From NCBI GenBank assembly GCA_040756035.1, contig JBFLZV010000005.1, positions 147-64,146 of the forward strand: 64,000 nucleotides of DNA, written 5' to 3'. This stretch comes from Pseudomonadota bacterium (GTDB lineage: Bacteria > Pseudomonadota > Gammaproteobacteria > SURF-13). Shown here piece by piece: positions 35,774 through 57,161 of the stretch. The position numbers were made by a program, and so were the translations under genes. Numbering within the stretch: the stretch's first letter is position 1; each line of letters opens with the position of its first letter. Below the pieces are notes generated by a model. The model ran no database searches and had not been told where the DNA came from. It saw only the letters and a list, made by a program, of their open reading frames with translations.

Positions 35774-37048
35774 ATGGGTGAAATCCGTCCGGCTGGGCAA
35801 ATAATAAAAGCATGTCTGTTCGGTGCGCTGTGCGTGGCGTCCTGGTCGAGCCAGGCTGCGCCGGAAAGCGCCGCGCAGGCTGACGTCATACAGCCCCACA
35901 TCTCCGCCAGCACCCTGCACGATAGCAATATATTCCGCCTTTCCAAGAGCAGTAATCCGCAGACCACGCTCGGCACCAGCGAAAAATCCGACACCGTCAA
36001 TCGTTTGGAGGCGGGCCTCGACGTCAACCTGCCGATCAGCCGGCAACGATTGCTGCTGGGCGCCAGCATAGGCCGTAATTGGTACGACCGCTTTAGTTTC
36101 CTGAATAACACCGACAAGAGGGCGAACGGCACGCTGCTGTGGGAAATCGGTAACCAGTGGAGCGGCGATCTCGGCACTACCTACGAAGAAACCATCGCCA
36201 GCTTCGGCGATTTGCAAACCCGGGTGCGCGATGAGATTACGCGCAAGAGAAATTTCGTCAACGCCGCCTATCTGTTCCATCCCAGTTGGCAACTGCACGG
36301 CGGCGTGGAAACCTACGACCTGGACCGCTCGCGCCTGCCCGACCGTAATCGCGAGGAAACGCTCAGCAAACTGGGCCTGCGCTACATCAGCCGCGCCGAC
36401 AACTATATCGACCTGGAAGCGCGCTACACCGACGCCGATTTCCCCAACCGCACCACGTCCGGGTCCTTATCCGGAACGGTGGGCCCCGGCGAGGAATTTT
36501 TACTGACAGTCACACCGATCGACAACGCTTTTGACCAGACCGAACTGCGCGGCGAAGTCGATTGGCGTTACAGCAAGTCGCACGTCAACGCGCGCCTGGG
36601 CTACTTGAAGCGCGATCACGAACAATTCCCGGCCCGCGATTTCAGCGGCGGCGTGGCGCGCCTGACCTACGACTGGAACATAACGGGCAAAACGCTGCTG
36701 AATTTCGCCGCATGGCGCGAAGTGCGCTCCACCGAAGACCTGCTTTCCAGTTATGTCGTGAGCAAGGGTTTTAGTTTCACGCCGACTTGGGATGCCACGT
36801 CCAAAATCAGTTTGCGGCTGCGGCTGGCGCGCGAAGAAGTGGATTTCCGCGGCGATCCCGGCGTGGCGGCGGGCGTGTCCACGCTCCGCGAAGACACGGT
36901 GCGCACCGCCACCTTGTCGCTCAACTACGCGCCGTTTGATAACACGCAATTTATTTTGGGCTATGAGAGGCAAAAGCGCGAATCGACGCGTAATCTCGCC
37001 GACTACACCTACGACAACGTAAACGCATCGGTGAGAGTGGATTTTTAA
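35774..37048 (+). CDS. PEP-CTERM-system-associated outer-membrane beta-barrel protein (TIGR03016-like)
   Basis: 424 aa. Signal peptide, alternating amphipathic beta-strand pattern, C-terminal aromatic residue (…VRVDF). First gene of the EPS locus. Confidence 0.55.
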   Translation: MGEIRPAGQIIKACLFGALCVASWSSQAAPESAAQADVIQPHISASTLHDSNIFRLSKSSNPQTTLGTSEKSDTVNRLEAGLDVNLPISRQRLLLGASIGRNWYDRFSFLNNTDKRANGTLLWEIGNQWSGDLGTTYEETIASFGDLQTRVRDEITRKRNFVNAAYLFHPSWQLHGGVETYDLDRSRLPDRNREETLSKLGLRYISRADNYIDLEARYTDADFPNRTTSGSLSGTVGPGEEFLLTVTPIDNAFDQTELRGEVDWRYSKSHVNARLGYLKRDHEQFPARDFSGGVARLTYDWNITGKTLLNFAAWREVRSTEDLLSSYVVSKGFSFTPTWDATSKISLRLRLAREEVDFRGDPGVAAGVSTLREDTVRTATLSLNYAPFDNTQFILGYERQKRESTRNLADYTYDNVNASVRVDF

Positions 37049-37216: not shown

Positions 37217-38887
37217 ATGAAAATGCTCACACAACATGGAACGTTGCACACCGATGTTTTTCCTCTCCCCTTACAAGCTGACGCGCCGGCGCTCATCGCC
37301 CCTTACGGCGGCGAACTGGTTAATTTGCTGGCCGATGAATCACAGGTCCAGCGCTTAAAACGGGAGGCCATCGCTCTCCCCTCCCTCGAACTCAATCCCT
37401 GGCAGCTCGCCGATCTGGAATTGCTGCTCAACGGCGGATTTTCGCCGCTGCGCGGTTTCATGAATCAAGCCGACTACGAGAGCGTGCTAAGTCGTATGCG
37501 CACCGGCGACGGCTTGTTTTGGCCCGTGCCGCTGGTGCTGGACGTCACCGCGGAAGCGGCTCGGCAACTCGCGCCGGAAAGCCGAGCCGCGTTACGCGAC
37601 GCGGAGGGCGTGTTGCTGGCGATACTCAATGTCAGCGACGTGTGGCAAGCGGATAAAGAGCGCGAGGCGCGCTTATTCCACGGCGCATCCGCTGCCGCTC
37701 GTCCCGGCGCGGTGCGGCCTAGGCGCGACTATTACGTGGGCGGCGCGGTGCAGGGTCTTGCGTTACCGGTGCGCTATGATTACCGCGCGCTGCGCCGGAC
37801 GCCCGCGCAATTACGCAAAGCGTTCACGGCGCGCGGCTGGACGCGCATCGCCGCTTTCCAGGCGGACGATCCGCTTCACGATGCGGCCCTCAGGGAAGCG
37901 CTGCGCGCGGCGCACCAGTGTGAGGCGAAATTACTGATCCATCCGCTCACCGGAACCCCAACCAGCGAGGACATCCATCACTTTCATCGCGTGCGCTGCT
38001 ATCAGAACATGGTGGCGCAACTTCCCAAATCAGAGGCCGCGCTGGCGCTGTTGCCGCTGGCGTCTCACCATGGCGCCGACGCGCGTACCACACTGTGGCA
38101 CGCCATTATTCACCGCAACCACGGATGCTCGCATTTTATCGCCGACACCGGCACGCTTGCACCGCGCATGGACGGCGTGCGCGCGGATGCCGAAGCGGCG
38201 CAAACGCCGGCGGCGCGTTGCCGGGAGCTTACCGGCGTCGAGTTGCTTCCCCTCGAAGCCATGGGGCGTGACGCAACTAATGCGGCGATCAACGTGTACA
38301 CCAGCCCATCGCTCGGCGATTGGCAGCCGCACAAACTTTATGTCCCGCGCGCCACGCGCGGCTTCACGGTGTTTTTCACGGGGCTGTCCGGCGCGGGAAA
38401 ATCCACATTGGCCAAGGCGCTCGCGGCGCACCTCATGGAATCGAGCGAACGCCAAGTGTCGTTGCTGGACGGCGACATTGTACGCAAACACCTCTCTAAC
38501 GAGCTGGGTTTCTCCAAAGAGCATCGAGACATCAACGTGCTGCGCATCGGTTACGTCAGCAGCGAAATCACCAAGCATCGCGGCATAGCCATTTGCGCGC
38601 CGATCGCTCCCTACCGGGCCACACGGCGCGCGGTGCGCGCCATGATCGAGCCGTACGGCGGATTTTTCGAAATCTACGTCGCCACCCCGCTCACGGTGTG
38701 CGAGCGGCGCGACGGCAAAGGGCTGTACGCCAAGGCGCGCGCCGGAATCATCAAGGAATTTACCGGTATCAGCGACCCGTATGAGACGCCCGAGTCTCCC
38801 GATTTGACGGTCGACACCTCGAATCAGTCGCCGGAACAAACGGTGCAGCGTATTCTGGATAAATTATGCGAGGAGGGTTTTATCTAA
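37217..38887 (+). CDS. cysC: adenylylsulfate (APS) kinase CysC with N-terminal motif-degenerate ATP-sulfurylase-like domain
   Basis: 556 aa. C-terminal APS-kinase P-loop GLSGAGKST, LLDGDIVR, and C-terminal FTGISDPYE. The N-terminal ~380 aa has the Sat fold, but canonical motifs are replaced: QTRN->QADD, HxxH->HDAA, GRDHAG->HRNHGC. Confidence 0.8.
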   Translation: MKMLTQHGTLHTDVFPLPLQADAPALIAPYGGELVNLLADESQVQRLKREAIALPSLELNPWQLADLELLLNGGFSPLRGFMNQADYESVLSRMRTGDGLFWPVPLVLDVTAEAARQLAPESRAALRDAEGVLLAILNVSDVWQADKEREARLFHGASAAARPGAVRPRRDYYVGGAVQGLALPVRYDYRALRRTPAQLRKAFTARGWTRIAAFQADDPLHDAALREALRAAHQCEAKLLIHPLTGTPTSEDIHHFHRVRCYQNMVAQLPKSEAALALLPLASHHGADARTTLWHAIIHRNHGCSHFIADTGTLAPRMDGVRADAEAAQTPAARCRELTGVELLPLEAMGRDATNAAINVYTSPSLGDWQPHKLYVPRATRGFTVFFTGLSGAGKSTLAKALAAHLMESSERQVSLLDGDIVRKHLSNELGFSKEHRDINVLRIGYVSSEITKHRGIAICAPIAPYRATRRAVRAMIEPYGGFFEIYVATPLTVCERRDGKGLYAKARAGIIKEFTGISDPYETPESPDLTVDTSNQSPEQTVQRILDKLCEEGFI

Positions 38888-38959: not shown

Positions 38960-40348
38960 ATGATTAGTGATGAACTACCGCATATCTCTCTCTGGGAGCG
39001 CTTGATAAATCCCGTGGTGGTGGTAAGCACTTTGCCGGCGGCAACGTTGTTCTACGGAAAGACGTTCGACGGTTACTATTTGGTGCTGGCCATCATCGTC
39101 TTTTTCATTTCATCACAGCTCTTCGAAAAAGTCACGCTGTTACGCTCACTGCGCAAGGTGCATCTTTTGACCCATGCGCAGGATATCCTCTTTGCATGGT
39201 CGACCGTCGTCGTCATCATTTTCATCCTGGGCTACGCAACCAAGCTCAATACCCAATACTCACAAGACGTTATTTTGCTGTGGCTGATCGCCTCTCCCAT
39301 AGCGTTGCTCGCGGCGCACGTCATTACCCGCGCTTGCCTCGCCAGACTTACGCGGCTGACCGATAAAAAGCGTAGCGTGGTCATCGCCGGCGCCAACGAA
39401 CTGGCCAGACAACTGGTAAAGACCATCAAAAACGAGCCTTATCTGGGCATGGAGATAAAGGGGCTGTTCGATGACCGCAGCCGCGAGCGCCTGAACGGCT
39501 GCAACGGCGAGATTGCGCTGTGCGGGCGCATCAAGGATTTGCCGGAATTCGTCGCCAAAAAGAAAATCAACATCATCTACATTACGCTGCCCATGTCGTC
39601 ACGCCCGCAGATCATGAAGCTGTTACAGGATTTGTATGACAGCACGGCGTCCATCTACTTCGTGCTCGATATTTTCGTCTTTGACCTCATTCAGCCGCGC
39701 ATCGACACCATTAAAGGCATACCGGTGGTGGCCATTTGCGAGAGCCCGTTTTGCGGCGTGAACGGCGTTATAAAGAACGCCAGCGACATACTCATCGCAG
39801 CCGTTATTTTACTGCTGATTTCACCATTGATGCTGTTAATCGCGTTGGGAGTGAAGCTAAGTTCGCCCGGGCCGGTGCTGTTCAAGCAGCGCCGTTACGG
39901 ACTGAACGGTGAAGAGATCAAGGTATATAAGTTCCGTACCATGACGGTGTGCGAAGACGGTGACTGCGTCGCGCAGGCAACCAAGAACGACCAGCGCGTG
40001 ACCCGCTTCGGCGCCTTCCTGCGCAAAACGTCGCTCGACGAACTGCCGCAGTTCATCAACGTGCTGCGCGGCGAAATGAGCATCGTCGGCCCGCGCCCGC
40101 ACGCGGTGGCGCACAACGAGCTGTACAGAAAATACATCCGAGGGTACATGCTGCGCCACAAGGTCAAGCCCGGCATCACCGGTTGGGCGCAGGTGCACGG
40201 TTTGCGCGGCGAAACAGAAACCATGGACAAGATGCGCGCACGCATCGATTACGACCTCGATTATTTAAGAAATTGGTCGTTGTCTCTGGACGTGTGGATA
40301 ATCATCAGAACCATCATGGTCATGTTCAAGCAACCCAATGCATATTGA
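38960..40348 (+). CDS. undecaprenyl-phosphate sugar phosphotransferase (EPS priming glycosyltransferase, WbaP/WcaJ/EpsB-2 family)
   Basis: 462 aa. N-terminal TM helices, central Rossmann-like domain, C-terminal bacterial sugar-transferase domain ([26 protein letters not shown]...SIVGPRP). Confidence 0.85.
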
Positions 40349-40409
40349 TGGTAAAGAGGGTTGTGCGAGCATTCTAGAGGGAGAGGTGCATATCAAGGGA
40401 GTATGCAAA

Positions 40410-41048
40410 ATGACAATAGTGAAGACTATGAAAGAAAGAGTGATGCAGGCATCGCGGGGTAAAAAGCTGGAGCACTTTTGCTCGCTTTACAAAGGCGGGA
40501 CCATACTCGACGTGGGTGTTTCATCTCACGCTCGTATCCAGCGGGAAAACCTATTTCTGGAGAAACTCAGGTACAGCCCGGAACTCTACACGGGACTGGG
40601 CGTGGAGGATTTGACCGAAATAGCCGCCGCGCATCCCGGCAAGCACTTTATTCGCTATGGCGGAGGCAGATTCCCGTTTAAGGATAAAGAGTTTGATTGG
40701 GCTCCCTCCAACGCCGTAATCGAGCAAGTCGGCGATGATAGTGCGCAGCTTTTGTTCATTAACGATATGCTGCGCGTGGCAAAGCAAGTATTCTTTGCAA
40801 CGCCTAATAAATTTTTCCACGTGGAAAGCCATACTAACGTTGTTCTGTTGCATCGGCTGCCTGGGCGAGTGTTTTATCAATGGCGCGATCGCCGTAAGAA
40901 GTATTGGGATGAAAACAATATTCGTTTGTTGGGCTATGGAAAGTTATGTAGCCTTATGAAGAATTCCAATGCAGAAACATACCGGATATATAAAAACCAT
41001 ATGTTCGGATGGCCCATGATGTTCACGGTTACTTGCACGGCCGCCTGA
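40410..41048 (+). CDS. putative SAM-dependent methyltransferase (lower-GC block)
   Basis: Start set at MTIVKT (AAGGGA RBS). GTILDVGVSSH resembles SAM-binding motif I. Local GC is markedly lower than the flanks. Confidence 0.45.
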   Translation: MTIVKTMKERVMQASRGKKLEHFCSLYKGGTILDVGVSSHARIQRENLFLEKLRYSPELYTGLGVEDLTEIAAAHPGKHFIRYGGGRFPFKDKEFDWAPSNAVIEQVGDDSAQLLFINDMLRVAKQVFFATPNKFFHVESHTNVVLLHRLPGRVFYQWRDRRKKYWDENNIRLLGYGKLCSLMKNSNAETYRIYKNHMFGWPMMFTVTCTAA

Positions 41049-41127
41049 TGAGCCATTTTAACGTGATCTAGTCAAGGGCATATTCCCTTGGGTTTGGTGG
41101 AAGACAAGGTTATACGGAGCGGTATTT

Positions 41128-41967
41128 ATGCCTACCATGCATGACGTATTGACGGAAGAAGAAATGTCCGAATTTAGGATAAATCCGGAAATTTCGAGAT
41201 ATTTGGAACTGGTTAGAGAGAAGTCGGGACTGGAAAAGGATCAATTCCGCATTTTGGATTGGGGATGCGGCCGGGGCCGGGCGGTGGGTTTGCTTAGAAA
41301 TCTCGGCTACGACGCTTACGGTGTGGATATTAGCCAGGAATTTTTGAGCAAGGGTAAGCAATATTTTATAAACAGGGAAGAAAATCCGGATGATTTTCTC
41401 TTTCTGATAAGCGAGGAGTGCAAGACGTGCTTCCACAATGATTTTTTTCACTTTATCTTCTCTTACCAAGTGCTCGAGCATGTGCAGGCTGTTGATCTTC
41501 TGTCCGAAGAAATAAGCAGGGTGTTGGCGCCGAACGGCGTATGTTTACACATCTATCCGGCTCACAAGCATATTATAGAAGGACATTTATTTATGCCTTT
41601 TGTCCACTGGCTGCCTAAAAGCGCTATACGGAAAGCAGCGATTTTAATGTTCGTGGCCCTCGGTATTGAGCCTCGCTGGCAGCGGTTGCAGGGTAAGGGC
41701 ATCCTCGAGAAAGCCAGGGCCTACTATGAGTTCAGCAAGAACGAGACGTTCTATCGCAGCTATGGCGTAAATAAGAATATCTTTGAGAAGAACGGCTTCA
41801 ACGTGGACTTCGTTACTATAGATAATCCACTGTTATATAAATACGGACCGCTTCGTAAATTAATGAAATTACCTTTCATTAAGAGACTGATTGGCTGGGG
41901 CTTGCTCAATTTTAAGTCGGTAGAGCTGTTGTTAACCAAGGGGAATCTACCGGTCGTCCGGCGTTGA
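41128..41967 (+). CDS. class I SAM-dependent methyltransferase
   Basis: 279 aa. Motif I ILDWGCGRGRAV, acidic motif II DAYGVDIS, motif III-like VLEHV. Lower GC. Confidence 0.65.
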   Translation: MPTMHDVLTEEEMSEFRINPEISRYLELVREKSGLEKDQFRILDWGCGRGRAVGLLRNLGYDAYGVDISQEFLSKGKQYFINREENPDDFLFLISEECKTCFHNDFFHFIFSYQVLEHVQAVDLLSEEISRVLAPNGVCLHIYPAHKHIIEGHLFMPFVHWLPKSAIRKAAILMFVALGIEPRWQRLQGKGILEKARAYYEFSKNETFYRSYGVNKNIFEKNGFNVDFVTIDNPLLYKYGPLRKLMKLPFIKRLIGWGLLNFKSVELLLTKGNLPVVRR

Positions 41968-42194
41968 GTTAGTGCCGCCGGCCTATTTTCTTTCTCTCAC
42001 AAGGCGACACATTTTGTCACATAGTGACGCATAGCCATCCCTCCGCACGTGCGCGGGTTGCGCATAATTTCCAACGCCGCGTCGAAAATAAACATAATTT
42101 TTGTTTTCAAAAACCGCTAATACCGCAGCAGGACTAGCTCTGCGCGCAAATTTCATTTCACCCGCCGGTTCTGGGTGGGTCTCGCATCCCTTTT

Positions 42195-42263: not shown

Positions 42264-43274
42264 GTGATGAAGAATGTTATTTCCCGGCTCGCTTCTATGC
42301 TGTTGGGTCTTGTCTTAATAATGGGGGTGGCGGCGCCGGCGCAGGCCGCGTTCCCAAACAAGTATCATCCGGGTCACTACATGTTGACCTATTTCGGCGC
42401 CACAGAGCTTAACGCCTTTAAGCCTATTATTAATAATCCGAATTTTGTGGGTGTGCAGAAGCGCTACAAATGGCGCACCCTGGAGCCCACGCGCGGCAAA
42501 TACGATTTTTCCATGATTATCCGGGATCTTAATTATCTGCGCAGCTTACCTATGCCTAAGCGGCTAATTATCCAAGTTACCGTTACCGGAGATGAAAAGG
42601 GGCTGCCGCACGCCCCCGATTATTTGAGAACGCCTGAATTTGACGGCGGCGTATACACGTCAACGTTCCCAGTGCGCTACGTTAGGACCAAACAGTGGAA
42701 TACGGCCGTGCAGGATAGGCTCATAGCCCTGTTCCGCGCCTTAGGGGCGCGTTTTGACAAAGAGCCTTACTTCGAGGGCGTAGTGTTGGATGAAACCGCT
42801 ACGGGTATTCGTCTCCATCAGTGGACGGCGGCTAACTATACGGCCGAGAAGGCATATAATGGCCACAAACGCATCATGGCCGGCTTGAAGGCGGCCTTTC
42901 CGAATACTATGTGCATTCAATTCATTAATTTCTTTTCCGGTGCAAACGCTAAGGATGGATTGAATAAAATCGCCGGACTGATTCAATATGCGCATCAGAT
43001 CGGCATGGGCATCGGCGGCCCGGACATCCATGTGGGCGGCACCGAGCCGAGTTACCCTTACTTCACTACTTATAACGGCAGTATGCCGTTGACCGCCGCC
43101 GTACAGTGGGAAGACTACGACTGGGTCAGCCCCACGGGTAGCATCGCCACGGTGCCGAAAATTTTCGACTTCGCACGCAATAAATTGCACCTGAATTATA
43201 TCTTCTGGCTGCAAAGAGAGCCCTACTTCTCAACGCAAGTGGTGCCGCTGGTGCGGCGCATGGGCGCTCCTTAA
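42264..43274 (+). CDS. secreted hypothetical protein (possible polysaccharide-active TIM-barrel enzyme)
   Basis: 336 aa. Signal peptide ending AAPAQAAF. No diagnostic motif recognised. GGAGG RBS. Driven by the sigma-54 promoter above. Confidence 0.5.
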   Translation: MMKNVISRLASMLLGLVLIMGVAAPAQAAFPNKYHPGHYMLTYFGATELNAFKPIINNPNFVGVQKRYKWRTLEPTRGKYDFSMIIRDLNYLRSLPMPKRLIIQVTVTGDEKGLPHAPDYLRTPEFDGGVYTSTFPVRYVRTKQWNTAVQDRLIALFRALGARFDKEPYFEGVVLDETATGIRLHQWTAANYTAEKAYNGHKRIMAGLKAAFPNTMCIQFINFFSGANAKDGLNKIAGLIQYAHQIGMGIGGPDIHVGGTEPSYPYFTTYNGSMPLTAAVQWEDYDWVSPTGSIATVPKIFDFARNKLHLNYIFWLQREPYFSTQVVPLVRRMGAP

Positions 43275-47423: not shown

Positions 47424-48635
47424 CTATATTCTCGGATAAGCGTTAAACGCCCACTGAACGGCCTGATAAAATGTCGTGGCGGGCTCCAGGATTTCCTTGC
47501 CGGCCTGTTGGGCGCCTTGCCTCAAGCGCGTATAAAGCACGCGATCATGAACAAGCTCGTGAATTTTTTTTCTAAGATCGGGAACCGAGTCGGGGATGAA
47601 TAACAAGCCGTTAATGCGGTCTTTCACAAGATACGGAAACGGACCGAACGCGGGGGCTATAACCGGTATGCCCATGGCCAGGCCCTCCATGGCGGCCATG
47701 CAGCGGCCTTCCGGAAAGCAGCTTTTGGTGGGAGTGACCACAATATAACTGTTGCGGATAACGCCGGCCAGCTCGTCACGCCCCAGCGTTCCGCGGAGAA
47801 CGACTCGATTGCCCAAGCTCAGGATGGATATCCGGTCCTTCAGCCCGTTGAGATCGTATCCACCGCCAACGTAAACCAGCCTTATATCAGCGCATGACTC
47901 AAGCAGCTCACGGCAGGCTTCGAGCAGATCGAACACGCCCTTGGTATAATCTATTCTGCCGATGTAGGTAATGGACTTGTAATGATTATCACCGTGGGCC
48001 GGCGCGTTGTCGTTAGCCCCCGGCCGCTCCCATAGATCTTTGAGCCCGCAATCGAATTCCTTGATGCGATGCTCCGGAATGCCGATATCCAAAAGCTGCT
48101 GTCGCAGATAAGGCCCATGGCAGATGGCGGTATTCACCCTGCGCAATATGTATTTGTTGATTTTAGCGATCAGCCGTTTGCGCGGACCGTGGCCGCTGTA
48201 TTCCAGGCGATTATGCAGTGAAAAAACCAGCGGCACGGAAAACAGCTTCGAGTAGATGAACGCCGCCCACAAAGGGTAACCGAGGCTGCCGCACAAGGCT
48301 CTGGTCGGCTTAAAGCGGGCAAGATGCAAAAGTATCCCGCCGAATGACAGCGTGCGCGCTACGGCCGCACCCATCGCTCCCAGCGCGGGAATGCTCATGC
48401 GCATAACGTATGCTCGTATATTCCTATGCCTGTAGTAGTCGCTGTATTTTTGGCTGGAGATGAGCAGTAGGGGACAATCTCCGACATGGGATAAAAAATC
48501 GGCAATGAAAGCATTGGGGCCACCGCTCGGAATGGCCGCCGGGTTTTTTATGAGCGATTTAAGCTGGAGAATTACATCGCCGTTTTTGATATATGCGTAC
48601 CGATGTTTAATTTCCATGCGCCTATCCTTGGACAT
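47424..48635 (-). CDS. GT4-family glycosyltransferase
   Basis: 403 aa (start may be MEIKHRY at 48617, avoiding overlap). C-terminal E-x7-E motif EGRCMAAMEGLAMGIPVIA. Confidence 0.8.
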   Translation of the reverse strand: MSKDRRMEIKHRYAYIKNGDVILQLKSLIKNPAAIPSGGPNAFIADFLSHVGDCPLLLISSQKYSDYYRHRNIRAYVMRMSIPALGAMGAAVARTLSFGGILLHLARFKPTRALCGSLGYPLWAAFIYSKLFSVPLVFSLHNRLEYSGHGPRKRLIAKINKYILRRVNTAICHGPYLRQQLLDIGIPEHRIKEFDCGLKDLWERPGANDNAPAHGDNHYKSITYIGRIDYTKGVFDLLEACRELLESCADIRLVYVGGGYDLNGLKDRISILSLGNRVVLRGTLGRDELAGVIRNSYIVVTPTKSCFPEGRCMAAMEGLAMGIPVIAPAFGPFPYLVKDRINGLLFIPDSVPDLRKKIHELVHDRVLYTRLRQGAQQAGKEILEPATTFYQAVQWAFNAYPRI

Positions 48636-49542
48636 TCTTTTGCACGGCTTGGAGATGGCTTGGACTTGTCAAGTAGCCGTAACGAATAAGCATATCTTTA
48701 AGGCTGGATTCGATCTCCGCCAGTTGCGTAGGCGCTAAATCCCGCTCATAAGCGTTTTTCCTGTCGCTGACCAGTGCTAATTTTTCAAAATGCTTGTTGA
48801 AGCGGCTGCTCCAAGGCAGGCCGCAGAACTGCATGGCGGCTCTTAGCGTGCTGTGTGGATTTTCTAAAAAGTCCTCGTAGCGCATCAAGAAATACTTATC
48901 TTTTCCCAACGGCCGGCCGGAGCGCTCGTACGAGTCTATGAGCAGTTTCCAATTAATGGCGGCCAGGCGCGGAAAAGACTGGGCGCCGGCATTCCATTCG
49001 TCCAGGTAATGTTGAGGGAGCGCACCCCACAGCCAATTTTCCGGGCCGCGATAGCCGTCCCACCATGGCATCTGTAGCCAGGAATTCGCCACGGCGCGAC
49101 CATCCCGAATGACGTGAATGAATTTCGCCTCGGGAAATATTTTCGAAAAAAAGCCTAGGCGCGGCCAGCCGGTATATTTATGTATGAAAAATTCCTTACC
49201 CTGACTGACATAGCGCTCGTTGAAGAAGTTTTGAAACTTGCCTTGCAGCCACGGCGTCACGTCATCGGCTTCCAAGTCGCGGCAGGGGCTTGCATAGATC
49301 GTGGATACGTTTCGTGAAATCAGTCTGTAGGCTTCCGAAGGCGCAAAGCGTATGCGTCCCTTGGCCGTCCAGCGAGACGGTAAATTTCTAAATAGAGGGT
49401 TATTCCATTTTCCCGATAAGTTCAGGAGCGGCAGATTATCTTCGACGTTCGATATAAATCCGACGTCTTCGTGCCTGGCCAGCACCTCGTGGATCAGCGA
49501 GGAGCCGCAGCGGCCCGTCCCCACGATAAACACCAGATTCAT
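48622..49542 (-). CDS. sulfotransferase-family protein (PAPS-dependent)
   Basis: Trimmed to MNLVFIVGTGRCGSS start (ATGA overlap with the upstream GT2 stop). 5'-PSB-like P-loop GTGRCGSS, 3'-PB-like RDGRAVANS. Confidence 0.7.
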   Translation of the reverse strand: MNLVFIVGTGRCGSSLIHEVLARHEDVGFISNVEDNLPLLNLSGKWNNPLFRNLPSRWTAKGRIRFAPSEAYRLISRNVSTIYASPCRDLEADDVTPWLQGKFQNFFNERYVSQGKEFFIHKYTGWPRLGFFSKIFPEAKFIHVIRDGRAVANSWLQMPWWDGYRGPENWLWGALPQHYLDEWNAGAQSFPRLAAINWKLLIDSYERSGRPLGKDKYFLMRYEDFLENPHSTLRAAMQFCGLPWSSRFNKHFEKLALVSDRKNAYERDLAPTQLAEIESSLKDMLIRYGYLTSPSHLQAVQKNVQG

Positions 49543-50603
49543 GCGTCGGACTCCGCTCGTGTACCGGGACTGCGTATGGCCGCGGGAGAGAGTAAAATTT
49601 TGTGGCTGATAGCTTCTTCCGGGCCGCGTTGTTTGCGTATGAATCCGAGCAGGGTGGCCAGGCCGAATACATGCCATGCGGCAATGGCGTATATGCCGCA
49701 TTTAATGCCCTTCTTCAAGACCGCGAATAATGCGGCGAGCAGAGCGGCCGCGAGCAGAAGGTAAGTAACCGGCGCAGGCAGAAAAGCAACGGATAGCCCC
49801 AACGACAACCAGAAAAATACAACCGCCAGGAAGACCTTGAATTCCCGGGCTGCCCTGTAGAAGTAGGGCTTGCCTAGGGCCGAGCGCAGCAGCTCGCCCG
49901 GGCCCCGCGCGTAGCGTGTGCGGAAGCGCCGTATAAGCAGTTTGTATTCCGGCAGGGTATGGCCATAGTGCAGCACGGACACGCTGGGGATGCGTACTAA
50001 AAGCCAATTTTTGGCGCGTAGCCGCAGCGCAAGCTCCAGTTCTTCAAACGAGTGTAAGTTTCTATTGGAAAAGTAACCGACCGACACCAGCGCATCGCGC
50101 CGGTAAAGTCCGCCCATATTCAGGCGATCCACAATCCCAGGCCTCATATGTGATGGGGGATTGTATTTTCTGGCCAAGAATATCAGGTTGGCGGCGTTTA
50201 CTTCCTCCACCATGCCGCCGACGCCGGCGACGTTGGCGTGGTTTTCCAGGTAGTGCAGGGCCTTGCGTATAAAGTCCGCGCGTAATTCCATATCGCCGTC
50301 CATGAGATAGATGTATTCGCCGCGGCAAATTTGAAAGCCGAGTTGCGGAGCGATGCCGCAACTGCGCTCCCCGGCGTCGAACAGCTGCACGACGGTAACG
50401 GGAAAGCCTAACGCGATCTGCGCCGTCTTGTCGGTGGACAGGCAATCCACGACAATGACTTCGGCATCCCATCCCGCTACGGCGGACAACGCGGAGCCGA
50501 CGGCGTTCGCGATGTTATTTTCCTCGTTGAACGCCTTGATAATGATGCTGACAAGGCAGTCGTGGGCGCCGCGCCGAGTGTTGGGATTTATTAAAAGCTT
50601 CAT
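49539..50603 (-). CDS. GT2-family glycosyltransferase with C-terminal TM helices
   Basis: 354 aa. VSIIIKAFNEENNI N-terminal GT-A motif, DGD (LMDGDMEL) DxD motif, C-terminal hydrophobic segment. Confidence 0.75.
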   Translation of the reverse strand: MKLLINPNTRRGAHDCLVSIIIKAFNEENNIANAVGSALSAVAGWDAEVIVVDCLSTDKTAQIALGFPVTVVQLFDAGERSCGIAPQLGFQICRGEYIYLMDGDMELRADFIRKALHYLENHANVAGVGGMVEEVNAANLIFLARKYNPPSHMRPGIVDRLNMGGLYRRDALVSVGYFSNRNLHSFEELELALRLRAKNWLLVRIPSVSVLHYGHTLPEYKLLIRRFRTRYARGPGELLRSALGKPYFYRAAREFKVFLAVVFFWLSLGLSVAFLPAPVTYLLLAAALLAALFAVLKKGIKCGIYAIAAWHVFGLATLLGFIRKQRGPEEAISHKILLSPAAIRSPGTRAESDA

Positions 50604-50627: not shown

Positions 50628-52199
50628 TTAATTTCGATACAAAGCGTTTTTCTTATGGGCTTGTTTCTCCAGCCAGGCCAGCAATCCGAACGCCGTCATG
50701 AATATGAACATCGCCGGTGGCGCGTACGGTATGTCAGGGCGGTAGAATAGCGAAACGACAAACAGCGGTATAATTGCATGCAGTCCTCGAGCGAGGGATT
50801 TCTGCCACGGATTTAGATTATCGGAACGTGACAGCCTGCGCGCGGATCGATATCCACATATAATCAGCAGCAAGAAGGCGCAAAGGCCGAGGATTCCGGT
50901 TTCCCATAGAATAACGGCAGCGCCGCTGCCGTCTATGCGCAGCGGAACATAGCGCGCCGCAACGTTTCCGATTCCCAGCCCCTGCGTGCGCGAGGCGCCG
51001 AGTCCATGCCCGATTAACAGGCGGGCGTCTTTGTTGGTCTTGTGTTGTCCCCACCAGAATTCCAGAACTTCGCGGCGCGTCATAAGCCCCAGCTCGCGGT
51101 GCTCGACGCCGGCGCGTTTGTTGAAGCTGTAGCTCGACAGGTGTTTTATGTTGTCTTCGAGACTGCGCCCGGTGGCGGACCAGTGGAACGCCTGATAGGC
51201 GAGCAATACCACGCTCAGGGACAACACTACCAACAGGCTGCCCACGATGAATGAACCGGGCCGCTGATACAGATTGTCTTTGTACAAGATCAATAGGGCC
51301 AGCGGCAGGTAAATAAAAATAACTTTAACCTCCATGAGCAATAACGGGCTTCCGAGCAAGAATATCGCCAAACCGAGTTTACGCTTTGCGATTACGCCGT
51401 GCTTATAAAGGCTCAGCATCACAATAATCAGGATGACTAAATACAGCGCCAAGACGGCGGTAAGTCCGCCGGCCTCCATGCTGCCGCCGAACGTTCCGAC
51501 TACGCTGTCGGATGCCTCGACTGTGCCGAGTCCCATTTCCAGACGCGACGATCTTACGAACAGGTATTGATACAGCACCGGAATAAACTGCGCCAGTCCT
51601 ATAAGCGCAAAACCCAGCAGCCAACGCCTTACGGTGTCTTTATCGAGCGGCACAAGGGCGAGGGCGGCCCACACGCCGCCGAAAAGCAGGATGCTCTTCA
51701 TCGAGAGAATGATCTGCCACGTTGGAGGCCGGTTGATCAAGGTGGATAGCAGGGCGATTGCCAGCAACAGCCACGCGCTGGTTGCCGTTGAGGAAAGGCC
51801 CGTTCTGGCCGGGGCTTGGGAAAGGCGCGAGGTCACGGCCGGTACGAACAGCATGGCCGCCAAGCCGTAGGTAATCCACCATGCCTGGTGCAGGGTGGGT
51901 ATGAAATATTGCACCGTACCGGCCAGCACTAGGGTGCCGATCAGCGTCAGCCAGAGCAGCGTGACCGGCTGCGTGGATAGGAGTAATCCGGTTAGCGCGC
52001 CGGCGAATAATATTGTGTAGAGCGGTTGCCCGCTCGCGGCGAGGAGACCCATCATGGCGGCGCTGAATAGCGCCAACATATAAGGTCCGACATTCCACAA
52101 AATATCAGTGCGATTATTCACAGGGCGGCCTGATTCGGTAGACCATGCTTTGAGTTGATTACGAATTTGTATTTGACGGCCCGTTCCCAAATCGGCCAC
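50628..52199 (-). CDS. Wzy/O-antigen-ligase-family membrane protein (exosortase-system-associated)
   Basis: 523 aa, >10 TM helices with a large periplasmic loop. N-terminus overlaps the sulfotransferase gene by 82 nt, so the true start may be an internal Met (e.g. MLALFSAAMMG, ~52079). Confidence 0.6.
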   Translation of the reverse strand: MADLGTGRQIQIRNQLKAWSTESGRPVNNRTDILWNVGPYMLALFSAAMMGLLAASGQPLYTILFAGALTGLLLSTQPVTLLWLTLIGTLVLAGTVQYFIPTLHQAWWITYGLAAMLFVPAVTSRLSQAPARTGLSSTATSAWLLLAIALLSTLINRPPTWQIILSMKSILLFGGVWAALALVPLDKDTVRRWLLGFALIGLAQFIPVLYQYLFVRSSRLEMGLGTVEASDSVVGTFGGSMEAGGLTAVLALYLVILIIVMLSLYKHGVIAKRKLGLAIFLLGSPLLLMEVKVIFIYLPLALLILYKDNLYQRPGSFIVGSLLVVLSLSVVLLAYQAFHWSATGRSLEDNIKHLSSYSFNKRAGVEHRELGLMTRREVLEFWWGQHKTNKDARLLIGHGLGASRTQGLGIGNVAARYVPLRIDGSGAAVILWETGILGLCAFLLLIICGYRSARRLSRSDNLNPWQKSLARGLHAIIPLFVVSLFYRPDIPYAPPAMFIFMTAFGLLAWLEKQAHKKNALYRN

Positions 52200-53026
52200 G
52201 GCAGGGTGTCTCTGCCCAGCAAGTCCGCCAGATCCAAGACTTCACCGGTCAGCTCGCGTTCAAGATAACGCCTGGTTTCCGGTAGCATAGGCGGCGCAAG
52301 GCTGCGCAGCGAAACAGTGTTGGCGCGAAGTATGCCGGCAATCAATCGACTATGCTTCAGGCGCGCGACCGCTCCATGAAAGCCGGCATTGCGTCCCCAT
52401 CGAGCGGTTTCTTTAAATAACATGTTCAGGGATTGTAGGCGCGGCTTGCGGCTTTCATTGGCGCGCTTCTCGGCGAAGCTGGACGTGTGGCGGGCGTCTA
52501 TTTCGAGGAACTGATAAAGCCGCCGCGCCTGTTCATCGGCGGCAAGTTCGATTTCTTCCTGAAACATTACTAGAATCTGATCGCGCCGGAAACGCGCCAG
52601 CCAGCGCTTGAGGTGTGTGGCGTAGCGTGATTGTTCAAGGTACATGGGATTATTGGCGAGGCCGGCCTCGAAGCTCAGGTTGTCCCCTCGGTGGTGGCCC
52701 GCGCGAATCTCGTGGAGATGATTGGAATAAGCCCTCTCCAGGGGATCGCGCAACGCTACGATGATTTTAAAATGCGGGTTGTACTGCCATGCACGCAGCG
52801 GCGCTTCGCTGTCGTAAAAGTACGAAGGTGAGATTTCTCCGGCCGCGATGCAGCCGCCAAGGTCGAAGTGCCGCTCATACCATTGAAAGCCGCGATCGTA
52901 GTAGTGGGAGAAAAAATCGAGTTCCTTGGGCGTGCTGACGCAAACCTGCGGGTGATCCTGCAGGATGCGGTGTATCCACGTGGAGGCGCACTTCTGCGCC
53001 CCGATGCCGAGGTACGTGGGCTTCAT
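52118..53026 (-). CDS. sulfotransferase (PAPS-dependent)
   Basis: 302 aa. 5'-PSB motif GIGAQKCASTW (K-x-x-T-W type), 3'-PB motif VALRDPLERAYS. Confidence 0.75.
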   Translation of the reverse strand: MKPTYLGIGAQKCASTWIHRILQDHPQVCVSTPKELDFFSHYYDRGFQWYERHFDLGGCIAAGEISPSYFYDSEAPLRAWQYNPHFKIIVALRDPLERAYSNHLHEIRAGHHRGDNLSFEAGLANNPMYLEQSRYATHLKRWLARFRRDQILVMFQEEIELAADEQARRLYQFLEIDARHTSSFAEKRANESRKPRLQSLNMLFKETARWGRNAGFHGAVARLKHSRLIAGILRANTVSLRSLAPPMLPETRRYLERELTGEVLDLADLLGRDTLPWPIWERAVKYKFVINSKHGLPNQAAL

Positions 53027-53709
53027 GCCTTGTGGACTCCCAGCAGTCGCGCAAGGGCCGGCTCACTCAGCGCGGACAGCAGCGCGTCGAGAAACTCCTG
53101 TTGCAGCCGGTAGGCCGCGTCGGCGTCGTTGCCGATGCTGGATACGCGCATCAGCAGGCCGTCCGGAATGCGTCCGCTCAAGCTGTAACGCATTTGCGCG
53201 AGTTTCTGTTGCAGGCCGCTGATCACCACTCGGTCGCCGGTGGTGATCCAGTACGTGATCGGTTCGACGCGCTCGCCGCGCACGGCGATCAACCGGCGCG
53301 CCGGAACTTGGCGCTGCGCGACGCGCAGTACCGTGTCATGGCGCCGGCTGATTTGAAAACCTTGCACGGCGTAACAGGTCTCCGGGCGGTGTACACGCAG
53401 CGTGTCGCTTTGGTCGCCGCCGTATGCGATGGACAGCATTACGCGCATGCCGCGGCCGTCGACATAGATGCGCGCCAGCGTCTGCTGATAATATTTTGCG
53501 ATCGTGGCCTGCGCGGCCGGGTTCACCATGAGCGGCCGGATGCTTTGGTCCTCGCGCCACGCGCCGAATTGCCTGGGGATTAAACTTTCCAAATCCCCGG
53601 GTGATCTTTGCGCCGCCAGCTTTTGCGTGGGCGTCAGCAGCAAGGCCAAGCCGGCCGCCGTAAACAGCGCCATGCTCACCCACCAGGATTTTACGCCGCA
53701 CGCATTCAC
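53023..53709 (-). CDS. epsI: EpsI-family exosortase-associated protein
   Basis: 228 aa. N-terminal signal/TM. Overlaps the exosortase stop by 4 nt, the usual exosortase-EpsI pairing. Confidence 0.7.
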   Translation of the reverse strand: MNACGVKSWWVSMALFTAAGLALLLTPTQKLAAQRSPGDLESLIPRQFGAWREDQSIRPLMVNPAAQATIAKYYQQTLARIYVDGRGMRVMLSIAYGGDQSDTLRVHRPETCYAVQGFQISRRHDTVLRVAQRQVPARRLIAVRGERVEPITYWITTGDRVVISGLQQKLAQMRYSLSGRIPDGLLMRVSSIGNDADAAYRLQQEFLDALLSALSEPALARLLGVHKA

Positions 53710-54581
53710 GCCGTGCGCCCCCTATTTACCGCGGAAAGCATCTGATCCATTAAAAAGAGGCAGGACAGAGTGATGCTAAATTCTACGAGACCCGCGAGGT
53801 CGTGTAGAAAACCCTGTCCCGCCTCATCGCCCAAATGGTAAGTGACGAGCACCAGCGCTATCACGCGCAAGGTGTTGGCCAGCAGCGCGATAGGCAGGAT
53901 ACCGATGAGTAAGGCGGCGTTGTGCCAAGTGCTCATCCGCCCGCGTAAATGGATGAACAGCGCGCCCAAGGCGCTCAGCGCAAACAACGAATAAATGCCG
54001 GAACAGGCATCGTCGACCAACAGCTGATAAGGGCCGATGCTCAGCGTTACGCCGCTGCGCGCCACGGGATAGCCGAACCAGTAAAGCAATTGTTCGGCCC
54101 ACAGAGAGATATAATGCTTAAGCGGGCCGGTGAAATAATCGATGATGAACGAGGGCAGGGGCACGAGGAACACTAAAAACATTACCGGAAACAAAAGTTC
54201 ACGCAGCGTCTTTGCGCCCTTGAGGAGCAGGATAACGCCGCTGAATACCGCGAGCTGCGATCCCACCTCCAGGAGCAGAATATCCTGGGAGCGCCCCAGC
54301 ACGTACATTAGCAATCCCGGCCCGAGCAACAGTGCGCCGAGCGTCGTGCGCTGCGCATCGTCCGCCAGGAGCAGCGCGCGGCGTTTTTTCCACAGCAGAC
54401 CCAGCGCCACGACGAGTATGATGAAGCCGTGCGCGTATTCCGGTTTTTGCCACGCCCCGGTGGCTAGCTTGAAATAAGTGGGCGCGTAAAGCGCCGCCAA
54501 GCCGAGCGCCACCGGCCACGCGGCGCCCGCGCCGATAAGGCGATGCGGCAAGGTCGGCGTAATGTTGATGGCGGCCGTCAT
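53706..54581 (-). CDS. xrtA: exosortase (XrtA-type)
   Basis: 291 aa, 8 TM helices. Catalytic Cys motif DDACSGIYSL and conserved Arg motif LANTLRVIAL. Confidence 0.8.
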   Translation of the reverse strand: MTAAINITPTLPHRLIGAGAAWPVALGLAALYAPTYFKLATGAWQKPEYAHGFIILVVALGLLWKKRRALLLADDAQRTTLGALLLGPGLLMYVLGRSQDILLLEVGSQLAVFSGVILLLKGAKTLRELLFPVMFLVFLVPLPSFIIDYFTGPLKHYISLWAEQLLYWFGYPVARSGVTLSIGPYQLLVDDACSGIYSLFALSALGALFIHLRGRMSTWHNAALLIGILPIALLANTLRVIALVLVTYHLGDEAGQGFLHDLAGLVEFSITLSCLFLMDQMLSAVNRGRTA

Positions 54582-54652
54582 GGAAGGTCAGCGATCCTTG
54601 TGTATGCGTAAACTGTAATGCGGCGCATGAGTCGCTGCGCGCAGCTCCTGGA

Positions 54653-55549
54653 TTAAAATTGGTTGAACACCGCACCGGCCACTTCCACGTTGGCCGCTCT
54701 TATTCTCTTGAGAAAATTTTTCGCTCGGGCAAGGTGCGTCGTATTCTTGCGCACCACCACCAGCGCCGTGGCGTACGCGGCGGCGGCCTGCGCCATGATA
54801 GCCTGGGCGTCGGCGTTATACTCGCCCGCCGGCGTGTCGATCAGGATGGCGTCGTAGTGATTGGATAATTCGTGCATCAACTGGCCAAAGGCGGCGCGGC
54901 TCAGCAGTTCCAACGGATTCGGCGGGATAGGACCGGCGGTCAACACGGAAAGATTCATAAAAAACGGCACGTTCTGTATGGTCTCGGCGCCCATGCGGCC
55001 GCTCAGCACGGTGGACAAGCCGATACCGTTGTTCAAGTTGAAAATGTTGTGCTGCCGCGGATTGCGTAAGTCGGCGTCGATGAGCAGGGTGTTGCCGCCG
55101 AGCTGCGCAAAGGCCACGGCGAGATTGGCGGCGACGTAGCTGCGGCCCTCGCCGCGCTCCGGGCTGATCACCACCCGCGTCTTGTATTCCACGCTGAACT
55201 TGCGCAGCAGCAACTGATTGCGCAGGCTGCGCAGCGCCTCGGATTGCGGGCTGAACGGTTCGTAGGCGGCGACCAGTTCTTTACTGAAGTCGCCGTCCTG
55301 TTTCTCCAGATAGGGATACTCGAACTGGCGGGCCAAGGCGAACTGAATGTCTTGCTTGGACAGCAGGCGCAGCTTGAGCGCCGCCTCGCCGAAGCGTACG
55401 CCGCGCTCTTTTTGGAAGCGCGCGATACGCTCGGCGTTTTCCTGCTTGAGCCTGCCGGCATCCATGAGAATTTTGCCGATGCTGCGGTCGTGAGTGCTGA
55501 CCACCATGCGCGGCGCATTGGAGCGGCTGTTCAATAAGGGCTGGTTCAT
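54653..55549 (-). CDS. BY-kinase-like P-loop ATPase (PEP-CTERM-locus tyrosine autokinase family)
   Basis: 298 aa. Walker A SPERGEGRSYVAANLAVAFAQ, Walker A' LLIDADLR, Walker B AILIDTPAG. Confidence 0.7.
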   Translation of the reverse strand: MNQPLLNSRSNAPRMVVSTHDRSIGKILMDAGRLKQENAERIARFQKERGVRFGEAALKLRLLSKQDIQFALARQFEYPYLEKQDGDFSKELVAAYEPFSPQSEALRSLRNQLLLRKFSVEYKTRVVISPERGEGRSYVAANLAVAFAQLGGNTLLIDADLRNPRQHNIFNLNNGIGLSTVLSGRMGAETIQNVPFFMNLSVLTAGPIPPNPLELLSRAAFGQLMHELSNHYDAILIDTPAGEYNADAQAIMAQAAAAYATALVVVRKNTTHLARAKNFLKRIRAANVEVAGAVFNQF

Positions 55550-55574
55550 AAAATTAAGTCTCCGTGATTTCTAT

Positions 55575-55725
55575 GGAAACTCTGAAAATTCCATCCATGG
55601 AATTTTCAGAGACGAAAAACGAAAATGTGTTTTCGTTTCTCTTCATTTTTCAATCGCCCGAAGCGATTGAAAAATAGCGATGCATCCCTGCGCTGCAAAA
55701 TCTCTGAATAAATTCAGAGATTTCC
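55575..55725. repeat. Modular palindromic intergenic element, family 1, copy D (P5-P4-P3-P2-P1, inverted relative to copy C)
   Basis: CTCTGAAAATTCCATCCATGGAATTTTCAGAG perfect palindrome, GAAAAACGAAAATGTGTTTTCGTTTCTC, TTTTCAATCGCCCGAAGCGATTGAAAA, GCATCCCTGCGCTGCAA, AATCTCTGAATAAATTCAGAGATTTCC. Abuts the wzz stop. Confidence 0.65.
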
Positions 55726-57161
55726 TAGGCGGCACGGAGTAGACGCTCCAGGCCGGGTATAAATTTTCCTGGATGCTTCTTCGCCTTTACATTGGCCTGT
55801 CTCTTGACCAGCACGCCAACCACGGGCAGCCCCAGGTCCTCGCTCACATCTTCCTCGGAGCGGATGTAGCGGTTGGCCATTTCGGTCATCAGTGCCAGCC
55901 CCACCCCAAGAAGACCGCCGAAGAAAATGGCCAAAGCGACATTCAGCAGAGCCTTCGGATGCGATGGTTCGATCGGCTCGATGGCCGGCGTGAGCAGCGT
56001 CACGTTGGTTTGGCTTAGCTGGCTTTCCATGTTGGTTTCGTTGAAGCGCTGCAACGCCGTGTCATAGGCGCGCTGCGCGTTTTCTACGTCGCGCATGAGC
56101 ACGGAAATATCGTCGCGCTGCTTGCGCAACTCCAGGACGCGCGCCTTTTGCGCAGCGAGCATGGCCTTCAGGGCTGCTTCGCGCTGCGTGGCGAGCTGCG
56201 CGTTGTTGACGATTCCGCCCGTAGCATTGATGATTTCCGCGTTTATTTTTTTGCGCATATTCTCGATGTCCGCGAGCGCACGCTGATACTGCGGATGATT
56301 TTTGCCTACCCCGGATAATTCCGAAAGCCGCGCCTCTTGTCTGGCCAGCTCGGCCTTTAGACCTTGAATATAGGGATTGGCGATGACCTCCGGCAGAGAC
56401 TCCAGCGCAATGCCCTTGTCCGGAGAACTCTGCGCCTGGTTTTGGCGCGACAACGTATCCTGGGTTTGCGCCTGCGCAGTAACCAACTGCGTGGAAAGTT
56501 CCGCCAGCCGAGCGTTCTCGATATCCAAGCGCTCATCGGTCGCTACGATGCCGTTTTGTTGCTGATAGGACGATAGCTTGGTCTGCGCCGTTTCCAAATT
56601 ACTCCGCAATATTTTTAGCTGTTCGTTGAACCAGCCGGCCACTTCGCGCGCCGGCTCGATGCGCAATTCCAAGCTGGTTTTTATATAAGCCTGCGCAAAG
56701 GCGTTGGCCACGGCGCTGGCGAAGCGCGGATCGGTGGAGGTATAGCTTAAATTGATCATGCTGCTGTCGGCGGAGGGTTCCACTTCGACATCTTTTAGAA
56801 GCATGTCGGCCAACCAATCGCGGATGGAACCTCTCCCCTCTGTCGCCTTCTCGAACTGCTCCTGTGCGTCGGGGTTGGCGTCGAGCTGTAGGCTGTCCAC
56901 CACCTTCAGGGCCACCCGATGGCTCAAGAGAATATCCTTCTGCGTAGCCATCTGACCGGACAGTAACTGCGCGTGCGGCGCCGTGCCGGCGCCGGTGATC
57001 GGATCGCTGTGCTTGAAATCCACCACGAGCTGCACGTTCGCCGTGTAGGATTTCGGCAGCAAATAACTGACGAGAGCGGCGGAGGCCACGGTTACGACCA
57101 GGGTGAATAAAACAATCCACACGCGGGCGCGTAATATAAGTAAAAGTCTTTGCAGATTCAT
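55725..57161 (-). CDS. polysaccharide chain-length determinant protein (Wzz/PCP family, PEP-CTERM-locus subtype)
   Basis: 478 aa. N- and C-terminal TM helices flanking a long coiled-coil periplasmic domain. Confidence 0.8.
   Translation of the reverse strand: MNLQRLLLILRARVWIVLFTLVVTVASAALVSYLLPKSYTANVQLVVDFKHSDPITGAGTAPHAQLLSGQMATQKDILLSHRVALKVVDSLQLDANPDAQEQFEKATEGRGSIRDWLADMLLKDVEVEPSADSSMINLSYTSTDPRFASAVANAFAQAYIKTSLELRIEPAREVAGWFNEQLKILRSNLETAQTKLSSYQQQNGIVATDERLDIENARLAELSTQLVTAQAQTQDTLSRQNQAQSSPDKGIALESLPEVIANPYIQGLKAELARQEARLSELSGVGKNHPQYQRALADIENMRKKINAEIINATGGIVNNAQLATQREAALKAMLAAQKARVLELRKQRDDISVLMRDVENAQRAYDTALQRFNETNMESQLSQTNVTLLTPAIEPIEPSHPKALLNVALAIFFGGLLGVGLALMTEMANRYIRSEEDVSEDLGLPVVGVLVKRQANVKAKKHPGKFIPGLERLLRAA

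Follow-up and report, generated by a model that had tools for sequence, protein, structure and literature searches.

A two-domain adenylylsulfate kinase with a probably inactive sulfurylase-like domain in an exosortase-B polysaccharide locus of a Pseudomonadota bacterium

Which step of sulfate activation is served by a protein that joins an intact adenosine 5′-phosphosulfate (APS) kinase to an ATP-sulfurylase-like domain, and what would such a protein do among polysaccharide genes? The question is raised by a gene in a 64,000-nucleotide stretch of DNA from a Pseudomonadota bacterium (Gammaproteobacteria, SURF-13; GenBank assembly GCA_040756035.1, contig JBFLZV010000005.1, positions 147 to 64,146 of the forward strand). 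The whole stretch is called the window here, and all coordinates refer to it unless a locus is named. The gene (37217-38887, + strand) lies in an exosortase-B (XrtB) polysaccharide locus that occupies 35.7-58 kb of the window. Its product is probably a two-domain APS kinase of the type known from Thiobacillus denitrificans (Tbd_0210, PDB-ID: 3CR8), in which the sulfurylase-like domain would be inactive and the kinase would supply 3′-phosphoadenosine 5′-phosphosulfate (PAPS) to the sulfotransferases of the locus. An earlier note on the window had likewise proposed a pseudo-sulfurylase domain and an active kinase feeding PAPS to sulfotransferases. This proposal is supported by 3CR8, by the clade to which the protein appears to belong, and by the presence of two predicted sulfotransferases in the locus.

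The reading frame given in the earlier note was confirmed as a single open reading frame (ORF) of 556 amino acids. A second ATG follows two codons in, at 37223, and is the start used for a public 554-residue protein (P0001) that is 99% identical. The gene is divided into the following parts, for which model confidence is given as the predicted local distance difference test (pLDDT):

37217-38887 (+), whole fusion gene, sulfurylase-like domain plus APS kinase, 556 residues in a single ORF
37295-37759 (+), PUA-like domain, residues 27-181, well conserved (Pfam PF14306, PUA_2, E 7e-45; pLDDT mostly >90)
37787-38263 (+), ATP-sulfurylase-like Rossmann domain, residues 191-349, catalytic motifs lost (Pfam PF01747, E 8e-32)
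38264-38356 (+), eroded C-terminal remainder of the sulfurylase-like domain together with the linker, residues 350-380, lacking ~30 residues that relatives have and modeled with low confidence
38357-38815 (+), APS kinase domain, residues 381-533, intact (PF01583 over its full length, E 1.9e-57)
38381-38407 (+), P-loop of the kinase, GLSGAGKST, read from the sequence

The match to PF01747 spans only profile positions 2-156 of 212. The kinase model of NCBIfam (TIGR00455) is passed with 195 bits at a cut-off of 138.7, whereas the ATP sulfurylase (Sat) model TIGR00339 yields 228 bits, under its cut-off of 323, and the bifunctional Sat/CysC equivalog NF004040 yields 637.3 bits, under its cut-off of 669. 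The curated thresholds therefore accept the kinase and leave the sulfurylase doubtful.

All kinase signatures are present in the C-terminal domain (TGLSGAGKS, LLDGDIVR, GFSKEHRDINVLR, KGLYAKA, and FTGISDPYE). The intact APS kinase that the earlier note had described from GLSGAGKST, LDGDIVR, and ISDPYE is found as stated, with PF01583 matched from end to end. Conservation is asymmetric along the protein. Among the positions that are near-invariant (at least 95%) in 41 intact enzymes, the kinase domain keeps 86 of 95 (91%) and the N-terminal domain 93 of 149 (62%). Identity to Tbd_0210 is distributed in the same manner, with 70% in the kinase domain and 42% in the N-terminal domain. Judged by sequence comparison, the differences of the N-terminal domain from intact enzymes are far beyond chance.

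The motifs were located by HMMER alignment to the Penicillium chrysogenum (1I2D/1M8P) and Aquifex aeolicus (2GKS) enzymes, by MAFFT alignment with homologs, and by column-wise comparison with the 41 intact enzymes. These alignments place the sites as follows:

37859-37888 (+), QADDPLHDAA, residues 215-224, replaces QTRNPMHRAH, which holds the sulfate/phosphate-binding QTRN and the HxxH motif
37952-37972 (+), GTPTSED, residues 246-252, replaces GxTKPGD (VGxTKPGD to TGTPTSED over residues 245-252)
38063-38089 (+), SHHGADART, residues 283-291, replaces MRM-GGPRE
38111-38128 (+), HRNHGC, residues 299-304, a retained form of the conserved RKN(H/Y)GC element that precedes GRDHAG
38144-38161 (+), DTGTLA, residues 310-315, the true counterpart of GRDHAG

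The protein has replacements at four active-site elements of Sat that reach at least 95% conservation among the 41 intact enzymes, and no element of the intact active site (QTRNPxHRxH, GxTKPGD, GRDHAG) is retained. The exchanges of QTRN for QADD and of HxxH (HRAH) for HDAA, both read in the earlier note, are borne out against 1I2D, 2GKS, and the 41 intact homologs. The same note had paired GRDHAG with HRNHGC. The loss of GRDHAG stands, but the register does not, as GRDHAG aligns to DTGTLA and HRNHGC is the retained upstream element. The alignment to characterized Sat enzymes that the note had proposed was run against those of P. chrysogenum and A. aeolicus, and the motifs are lost rather than shifted and intact. 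Three features go beyond the note, namely the loss of TKPGD, the loss of MRM-GGPRE, and a deletion of ~30 residues. The deletion removes the segment "..SGTELRRRL.EG..IP.WF.." in front of the linker, near the interdomain junction, and this segment is kept even in degenerate relatives.

The altered domain is nevertheless predicted to fold. An AlphaFold2 model built from a 60-sequence alignment has a mean pLDDT of 77.9, with most blocks of the N-terminal domain above 85-95 and low confidence limited to residues 1-22 and the eroded linker (350-380). Foldseek searches of the PDB with the whole chain return 1M8P/1I2D, 3CR8, and 2GKS. At the level of single domains, the N-terminal domain matches a truncated yeast sulfurylase (1R6X, root mean square deviation (rmsd) 3.8 Å, template modeling (TM) score 0.72), and the kinase domain matches APS kinases (rmsd about 2.7 Å, TM score about 0.85). 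The orientation of the domains in the monomer model is unreliable because the global rmsd is large. The ratio of N-domain to kinase distances is ~2.8 in the degenerate clade described below and ~1.6 in intact enzymes, so the constraint on the N-terminal domain is relaxed but clearly present. Four metagenomic copies that are 99% identical to the gene (L086-L089) differ from it by only 10 nucleotides (seven synonymous, three nonsynonymous), which is too few to gauge selection.

The closest sequence in the PDB is 3CR8 (E 1.7e-134), the product of T. denitrificans Tbd_0210 (UniProt Q3SM86), ahead of the fungal sulfurylases and the bifunctional A. aeolicus enzyme. The title of Gay et al. (2009) and the papers citing it describe this protein as a hexameric "AS-like domain/APSK" with an inactive ATP-sulfurylase-like (AS-like) domain and an active kinase. 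A set of 205 homologs was drawn from a collection of 5.8 billion proteins, of which ~19 have degenerate motifs and 182 intact ones. The degenerate proteins closest to the window protein form group A (P0002-P0005, QA[ACS]NPL..) and share only 49-54% identity with it. Group B, which includes proteins of Candidatus Nitrotoga, has the motifs QA(H/R)QPLHRAQ and GGE(Y/H), and the same pattern is found in Tbd_0210.

Trees of the two domains (neighbor-joining only, 200 bootstraps) join the window protein, groups A and B, and 3CR8 to the exclusion of the intact enzymes in 200 of 200 replicates for the N-terminal domain and in 144 of 200 for the kinase domain. The second grouping matters because the kinase domain is not under relaxed selection and is less prone to long-branch artifacts. 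The degenerate clade also shares derived states (T216A, K300R, S51A, the loss of GRDHAG, and N400K in the kinase). Because of the clade grouping and the shared derived residues, the inactivation of the sulfurylase is read from the sequences as old and shared with Tbd_0210. Further erosion beyond Tbd_0210 has taken place in the window lineage (R222D, E226R, R284H, G288D, and the ~30-residue deletion beside the linker). An independent, recent inactivation in the window lineage alone was considered and rejected, as the losses, along with several derived residues, also occur in the nearest relatives and in Tbd_0210.

A wider sample came from a profile search of 1.84 billion representatives clustered at 50% identity (P0212-P0360). 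Among its top representatives, 107 cover the motifs in full; both QTRN/HxxH and GRDHAG are missing from 31 of them, and one of the two from another 17. Many motif-degenerate representatives are still fused to a P-loop kinase, and several are long multidomain proteins (800-1135 residues). By their motifs, degenerate sulfurylase-like domains are common, and motif loss in Sat seems to have happened many times. When reference genomes were scanned with an N-domain profile of the degenerate clade, the matches listed were nearly all intact enzymes of Acidobacteriota and Verrucomicrobiota (best identity 49%). Among these matches there were no additional group A genomes and a single Nitrotoga locus (L014).

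The surroundings of the gene connect it to polysaccharide synthesis. The main features of the XrtB locus are:

35774-37048 (+), epsL, XrtB-associated outer-membrane beta-barrel, conserved upstream neighbor in group A by synteny (TIGR03014, 334.6 bits, cut-off 275)
38960-40348 (+), priming undecaprenyl-phosphate glucose phosphotransferase of the WcaJ type, conserved downstream neighbor (TIGR03023, 537 bits, cut-off 411)
48622-49701 (-), sulfotransferase 1, PAPS-binding loops GTGRCGSS and IRDGRAVANS (PF13469, E 1.7e-22)
52118-53026 (-), sulfotransferase 2, PAPS-binding loops GAQKCAST and LRDPLERAYS (PF00685, E 2.3e-14)
53023-57989 (-), system core consisting of EpsI (B-type), XrtB, the EpsG tyrosine kinase, the EpsF chain-length determinant, and a polysaccharide export protein

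The core proteins score above their curated cut-offs (XrtB 303 over 275, EpsI B-type 281 over 220, EpsF 557 over 423, and EpsG 340 over 314). The locus additionally encodes a methyltransferase, a glycoside hydrolase-like protein, a flippase, and glycosyltransferases of the GT1 and GT2 types. Both sulfotransferases have a Sulfotransfer_1/3 domain with loops that we take, from general knowledge of the family, to be the 5′-phosphosulfate-binding (5′-PSB) and 3′-phosphate-binding (3′-PB) loops. Translation of sulfotransferase 1 probably starts at Met54 (MNLVFIVGTGRCGSS, near 49542), 53 codons into the listed ORF and 3 nucleotides from the low-coordinate end (49539) of the listed GT2 ORF.

Synteny around the fusion gene is conserved in group A. 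In the window and its four nearest relatives the arrangement epsL, fusion, priming glycosyltransferase recurs, and epsL and/or the priming glycosyltransferase always adjoin the fusion. Locus L090 has the three genes in this order. In L085 the fusion is followed by a priming glycosyltransferase 72% identical to that of the window and then by a conserved 336-residue gene. In L001 the order is epsL, sulfotransferase, fusion, placed among glycosyltransferases, with the sulfotransferase directly upstream of the fusion. The genes of group B (from Nitrotoga and metagenome contigs) are located outside polysaccharide loci in unrelated contexts. The 336-residue ORF of the window (42264-43274, + strand) has no Pfam match; it is 63% identical to its counterpart in L085 and has two copies of 38-40% identity in L001.

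A gene of ~320 residues with weak DHH/DHHA1 matches (E ~1e-3) directly adjoins the fusion gene with dead sulfurylase motifs in four loci, one of group A and three of group B. Its copies, 60-85% identical to each other, are found at:

L001, 12003-12962, DHH-like gene
L002, 9043-10020, DHH-like gene
L014, 5856-6830, DHH-like gene
L091, 2495-3457, DHH-like gene

The same scan covered 79 other loci, nearly all with intact enzymes, and none of these has the gene. NrnA-type phosphatases of 3′-phosphoadenosine 5′-phosphate (pAp, PAP) belong to the DHH/DHHA1 proteins, and the gene may be a partner in PAP recycling. It has no homolog in the window and no sequence relative in the PDB. On both counts, such a partner was set aside as an explanation for the window locus.

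The earlier note had also proposed a search for cysDN or sat. The search covered the 64-kb window and ~5 kb past its start, and neither was found in this range. Across the ORFs scanned in the window there are no domains of cysD/cysN, sat, cysH, or cysQ, and the ~5 kb past the window start encode DHFR, TauE, ThyA, and Lgt and no sulfate-activation genes. Promoter and terminator sites predicted between 35.4 and 41.2 kb were no more frequent than in shuffled sequences and gave no operon evidence in either direction.

In the favored explanation, the C-terminal kinase would phosphorylate APS to PAPS, by analogy with its characterized relatives. The N-terminal PUA and sulfurylase-like domain would keep its fold but, with all four active-site elements replaced, could not produce APS. 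By analogy with the T. denitrificans and Entamoeba histolytica enzymes, the dead domain may act as an oligomerization scaffold, as a positive modulator of the kinase, or as both. The fusion would most likely be a dedicated PAPS supplier for the two sulfotransferases of the XrtB locus, which in turn are predicted to sulfate the polysaccharide, and its APS would come from another enzyme of the cell, presumably CysDN or a separate Sat. In many Pseudomonadota, assimilation does not depend on PAPS, as APS itself is reduced, and this would account for the linkage of a dedicated kinase to the sulfotransferases.

Several points weigh against this explanation. The enzyme activities are assigned to the window protein by homology, and the APS supply step is assumed, with no APS-producing enzyme encoded in the range searched. 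The fusion is linked to the sulfotransferases by the locus, in which they lie 10-14 kb away on the opposite strand and not in an operon with it. The N-domain grouping in the trees could be inflated by long-branch attraction, and the support for the kinase-domain grouping is only 72%. The hexamer-scaffold role of the T. denitrificans domain may not transfer, as the N-terminal domain of the window protein is more eroded; the AlphaFold2 model, a monomer, carries no information on assembly.

The absence of another APS source in the window would be accounted for if the protein were a genuine bifunctional PAPS synthetase (Sat/CysC, like 2GKS) whose N-terminal domain makes APS with a divergent active site. 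Such an enzyme would also agree with the similarity of the protein over its full length to NF004040 (637 bits) and 2GKS (E 9e-105), and members of the clade carry the matching public name [quoted passage not shown] It is nonetheless highly improbable. The scores remain under the equivalog cut-offs (637 against 669, and 228 against 323 for Sat), all four active-site elements are replaced, with two positions turned acidic (QTRN to QADD) and GRDHAG gone, and, going by the title of Gay et al. (2009) and the papers citing it, the closest characterized relative has no sulfurylase activity. At the other extreme, the N-terminal domain could be a functionless relic that decays neutrally while only the kinase matters. 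Stand-alone APS kinases (CysC) function without such a domain, the pace of N-domain evolution, measured against the kinase, exceeds that in intact enzymes (2.8 against 1.6), and the window copy has substitutions and a deletion beyond those of its clade. Neutral decay is unlikely, however, for a stretch of ~370 codons that has stayed open without a frameshift in a clade old enough for 42-49% N-domain identity. Furthermore, the domain keeps 62% of the near-invariant positions, many columns are invariant across the degenerate clade, and the prediction is of a folded domain (pLDDT >85-95). The kinase activity of the E. histolytica APS kinase (EhAPSK) changes when the equivalent domain is deleted or mutated (PMC13213808).

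A further reading assigns the dead domain a role as sensor of a ligand (APS, PAPS, PAP, or sulfate) or as a dock for sulfotransferases that tunes PAPS output to polysaccharide synthesis. A mirror-image precedent exists in the ATP sulfurylase of P. chrysogenum, whose dead kinase-like domain is an allosteric site for PAPS. The strict locus association in group A and the enhancement of kinase activity by the EhAPSK domain (PMC13213808) would fit as well. Yet the residues that contact nucleotide and sulfate are those that were lost, and the equivalent EhAPSK domain is reported to be without substrate-binding capacity (PMC13213808), which renders the reading quite unlikely. Somewhat less doubtful, though still unlikely, is that group A is a distinct lineage fixed in XrtB loci, in which the eroded N-terminal domain may dock sulfotransferases or sense PAP/PAPS and thereby couple sulfation to PAPS output. 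If this were true, the lineage would mark an uncharacterized class of sulfated exopolysaccharides in non-cyanobacterial Pseudomonadota.

The favored explanation, a kinase with a dead sulfurylase-like domain, has consequences for annotation. Public names of members of the dead-motif clade (P0017, P0019, and other group B proteins) include [quoted passage not shown] and, in Candidatus Nitrotoga, "Sulfate adenylyltransferase, dissimilatory-type." For the group B proteins these are likely systematic mis-annotations, to judge from the motifs, and they would wrongly credit genomes with a sulfate-activating step. The motif states at the four sites separate dead from live forms cleanly. Additionally, the gene is a sign that the XrtB locus around it probably encodes a pathway for a sulfated exopolysaccharide, equipped with a PAPS supply of its own. 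The window protein, as a natural variant with stronger erosion, lends itself to the question of what a dead sulfurylase domain gives to the kinase.

Other features of the window were recorded along with the locus. A 523-residue ORF (50628-52199, - strand) between the GT2 gene and sulfotransferase 2 has no Pfam or NCBIfam match and could, by its position, encode a polymerase or a ligase-like membrane protein. The guanine-cytosine content falls to 0.48 at 40001-42000 and to 0.50 at 58001-60000, compared with 0.54-0.65 elsewhere in the window. The first dip extends over the last part of the priming glycosyltransferase gene, an unannotated 236-residue ORF, and the methyltransferase; the second covers a rotamase-like gene, a 160-residue ORF without family match, and the junction with type II secretion genes. 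Both dips may be horizontally acquired inserts. Two multi-EF-hand calcium-binding proteins are encoded close together at 5858-6475 (+) and 7506-8327 (+), upstream of a housekeeping block. A 460-residue ORF at 686-2068 (-) has no family match and is probably spurious; the public annotation places Lactamase_B, a TauE sulfite-exporter family protein, and DHFR on the + strand at 638-2666.

The combination of a dead sulfurylase with an APS kinase has precedents. The earlier note had presented it as the reverse of the fungal case, and the pattern holds, but it is not a new concept, having been published since 2009 with E. histolytica as a second example. As far as the title and citing papers tell, the structure and activity of the T. 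denitrificans enzyme were reported in 2009; those of the E. histolytica enzyme followed between 2019 and 2026. What is specific to the window is a more eroded copy, which belongs to a subclade found within exosortase-B polysaccharide loci that also carry sulfotransferases.

The nearest of the known systems is Tbd_0210, whose type is characterized in part by a D3 hexamer with contacts between the dead domain and adjacent kinase domains. Papers citing Gay, Segel & Fisher (2009, Acta Cryst D65:1021) report that its AS-like domain was proposed as a stabilizer of the hexamer, and they refer to Gay et al. (2009, ABB 489:110) for the enzyme kinetics. Tbd_0210 has the same domain order as the window protein, has likewise lost QTRN, HxxH, and GRDHAG (QARQPMHRAQ, ...IAGG), falls into the same clade in both domain trees, and shares derived substitutions with it. 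The window protein differs by its more eroded N-terminal domain (HDAA compared to HRAQ, an acidic QADD, loss of MRM..PRE, and the ~30-residue deletion) and by its place in a sister subgroup (group A) located in XrtB polysaccharide loci.

EhAPSK (EHI_179080) resembles the window protein in the fusion of a dead AS-like domain to the N terminus of an active APS kinase whose activity it influences. The domain is non-catalytic and no longer capable of binding substrate, and its contacts with the kinase domain raise kinase activity; crystal structures were published in 2026 (PMC13213808). The PDB entry 23vk, named only "adenylyl-sulfate kinase," is probably this protein. EhAPSK differs in being eukaryotic, mitosomal, and dimeric with flexible domains, and its inactivation is ascribed to the shortness of the linker and the lack of a substrate-binding loop. 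It is also distant in sequence, as the 23vk chain matches the window protein with E 2.9e-72, mostly via the kinase domain.

The bifunctional Sat/CysC enzymes (2GKS of A. aeolicus, NF004040) have the same three-domain layout, ~50% overall identity, and the position of a sister lineage in the trees. In contrast to the window protein, which keeps none of them, they retain QTRNPMHRAH, GxTKPGD, MRMGGPRE, and GRDHAG. The ATP sulfurylases of P. chrysogenum and yeast (1I2D, 1M8P, 1G8F) share the fold, the domain order, and the principle that one domain is catalytic and the other degenerate. They are the mirror image of the window protein, with an active sulfurylase and a dead kinase-like domain (P-loop GYMNSGKD compared to GLSGAGKST). 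A fungal-type enzyme with an active sulfurylase and a degenerate kinase P-loop was ruled out for the window protein, in which the pattern is reversed.

On the level of the pathway, the closest parallel is provided by rhizobial NodP/NodQ with NodH, where dedicated sulfate-activation genes are located inside a glycoconjugate-sulfation locus. In both cases, a PAPS supply dedicated to one pathway would be encoded beside the sulfotransferase that uses it. The difference is that NodPQ, in which a sulfurylase of the CysDN type is fused to CysC, produces the APS itself, whereas the window enzyme is predicted to catalyze the kinase step only.

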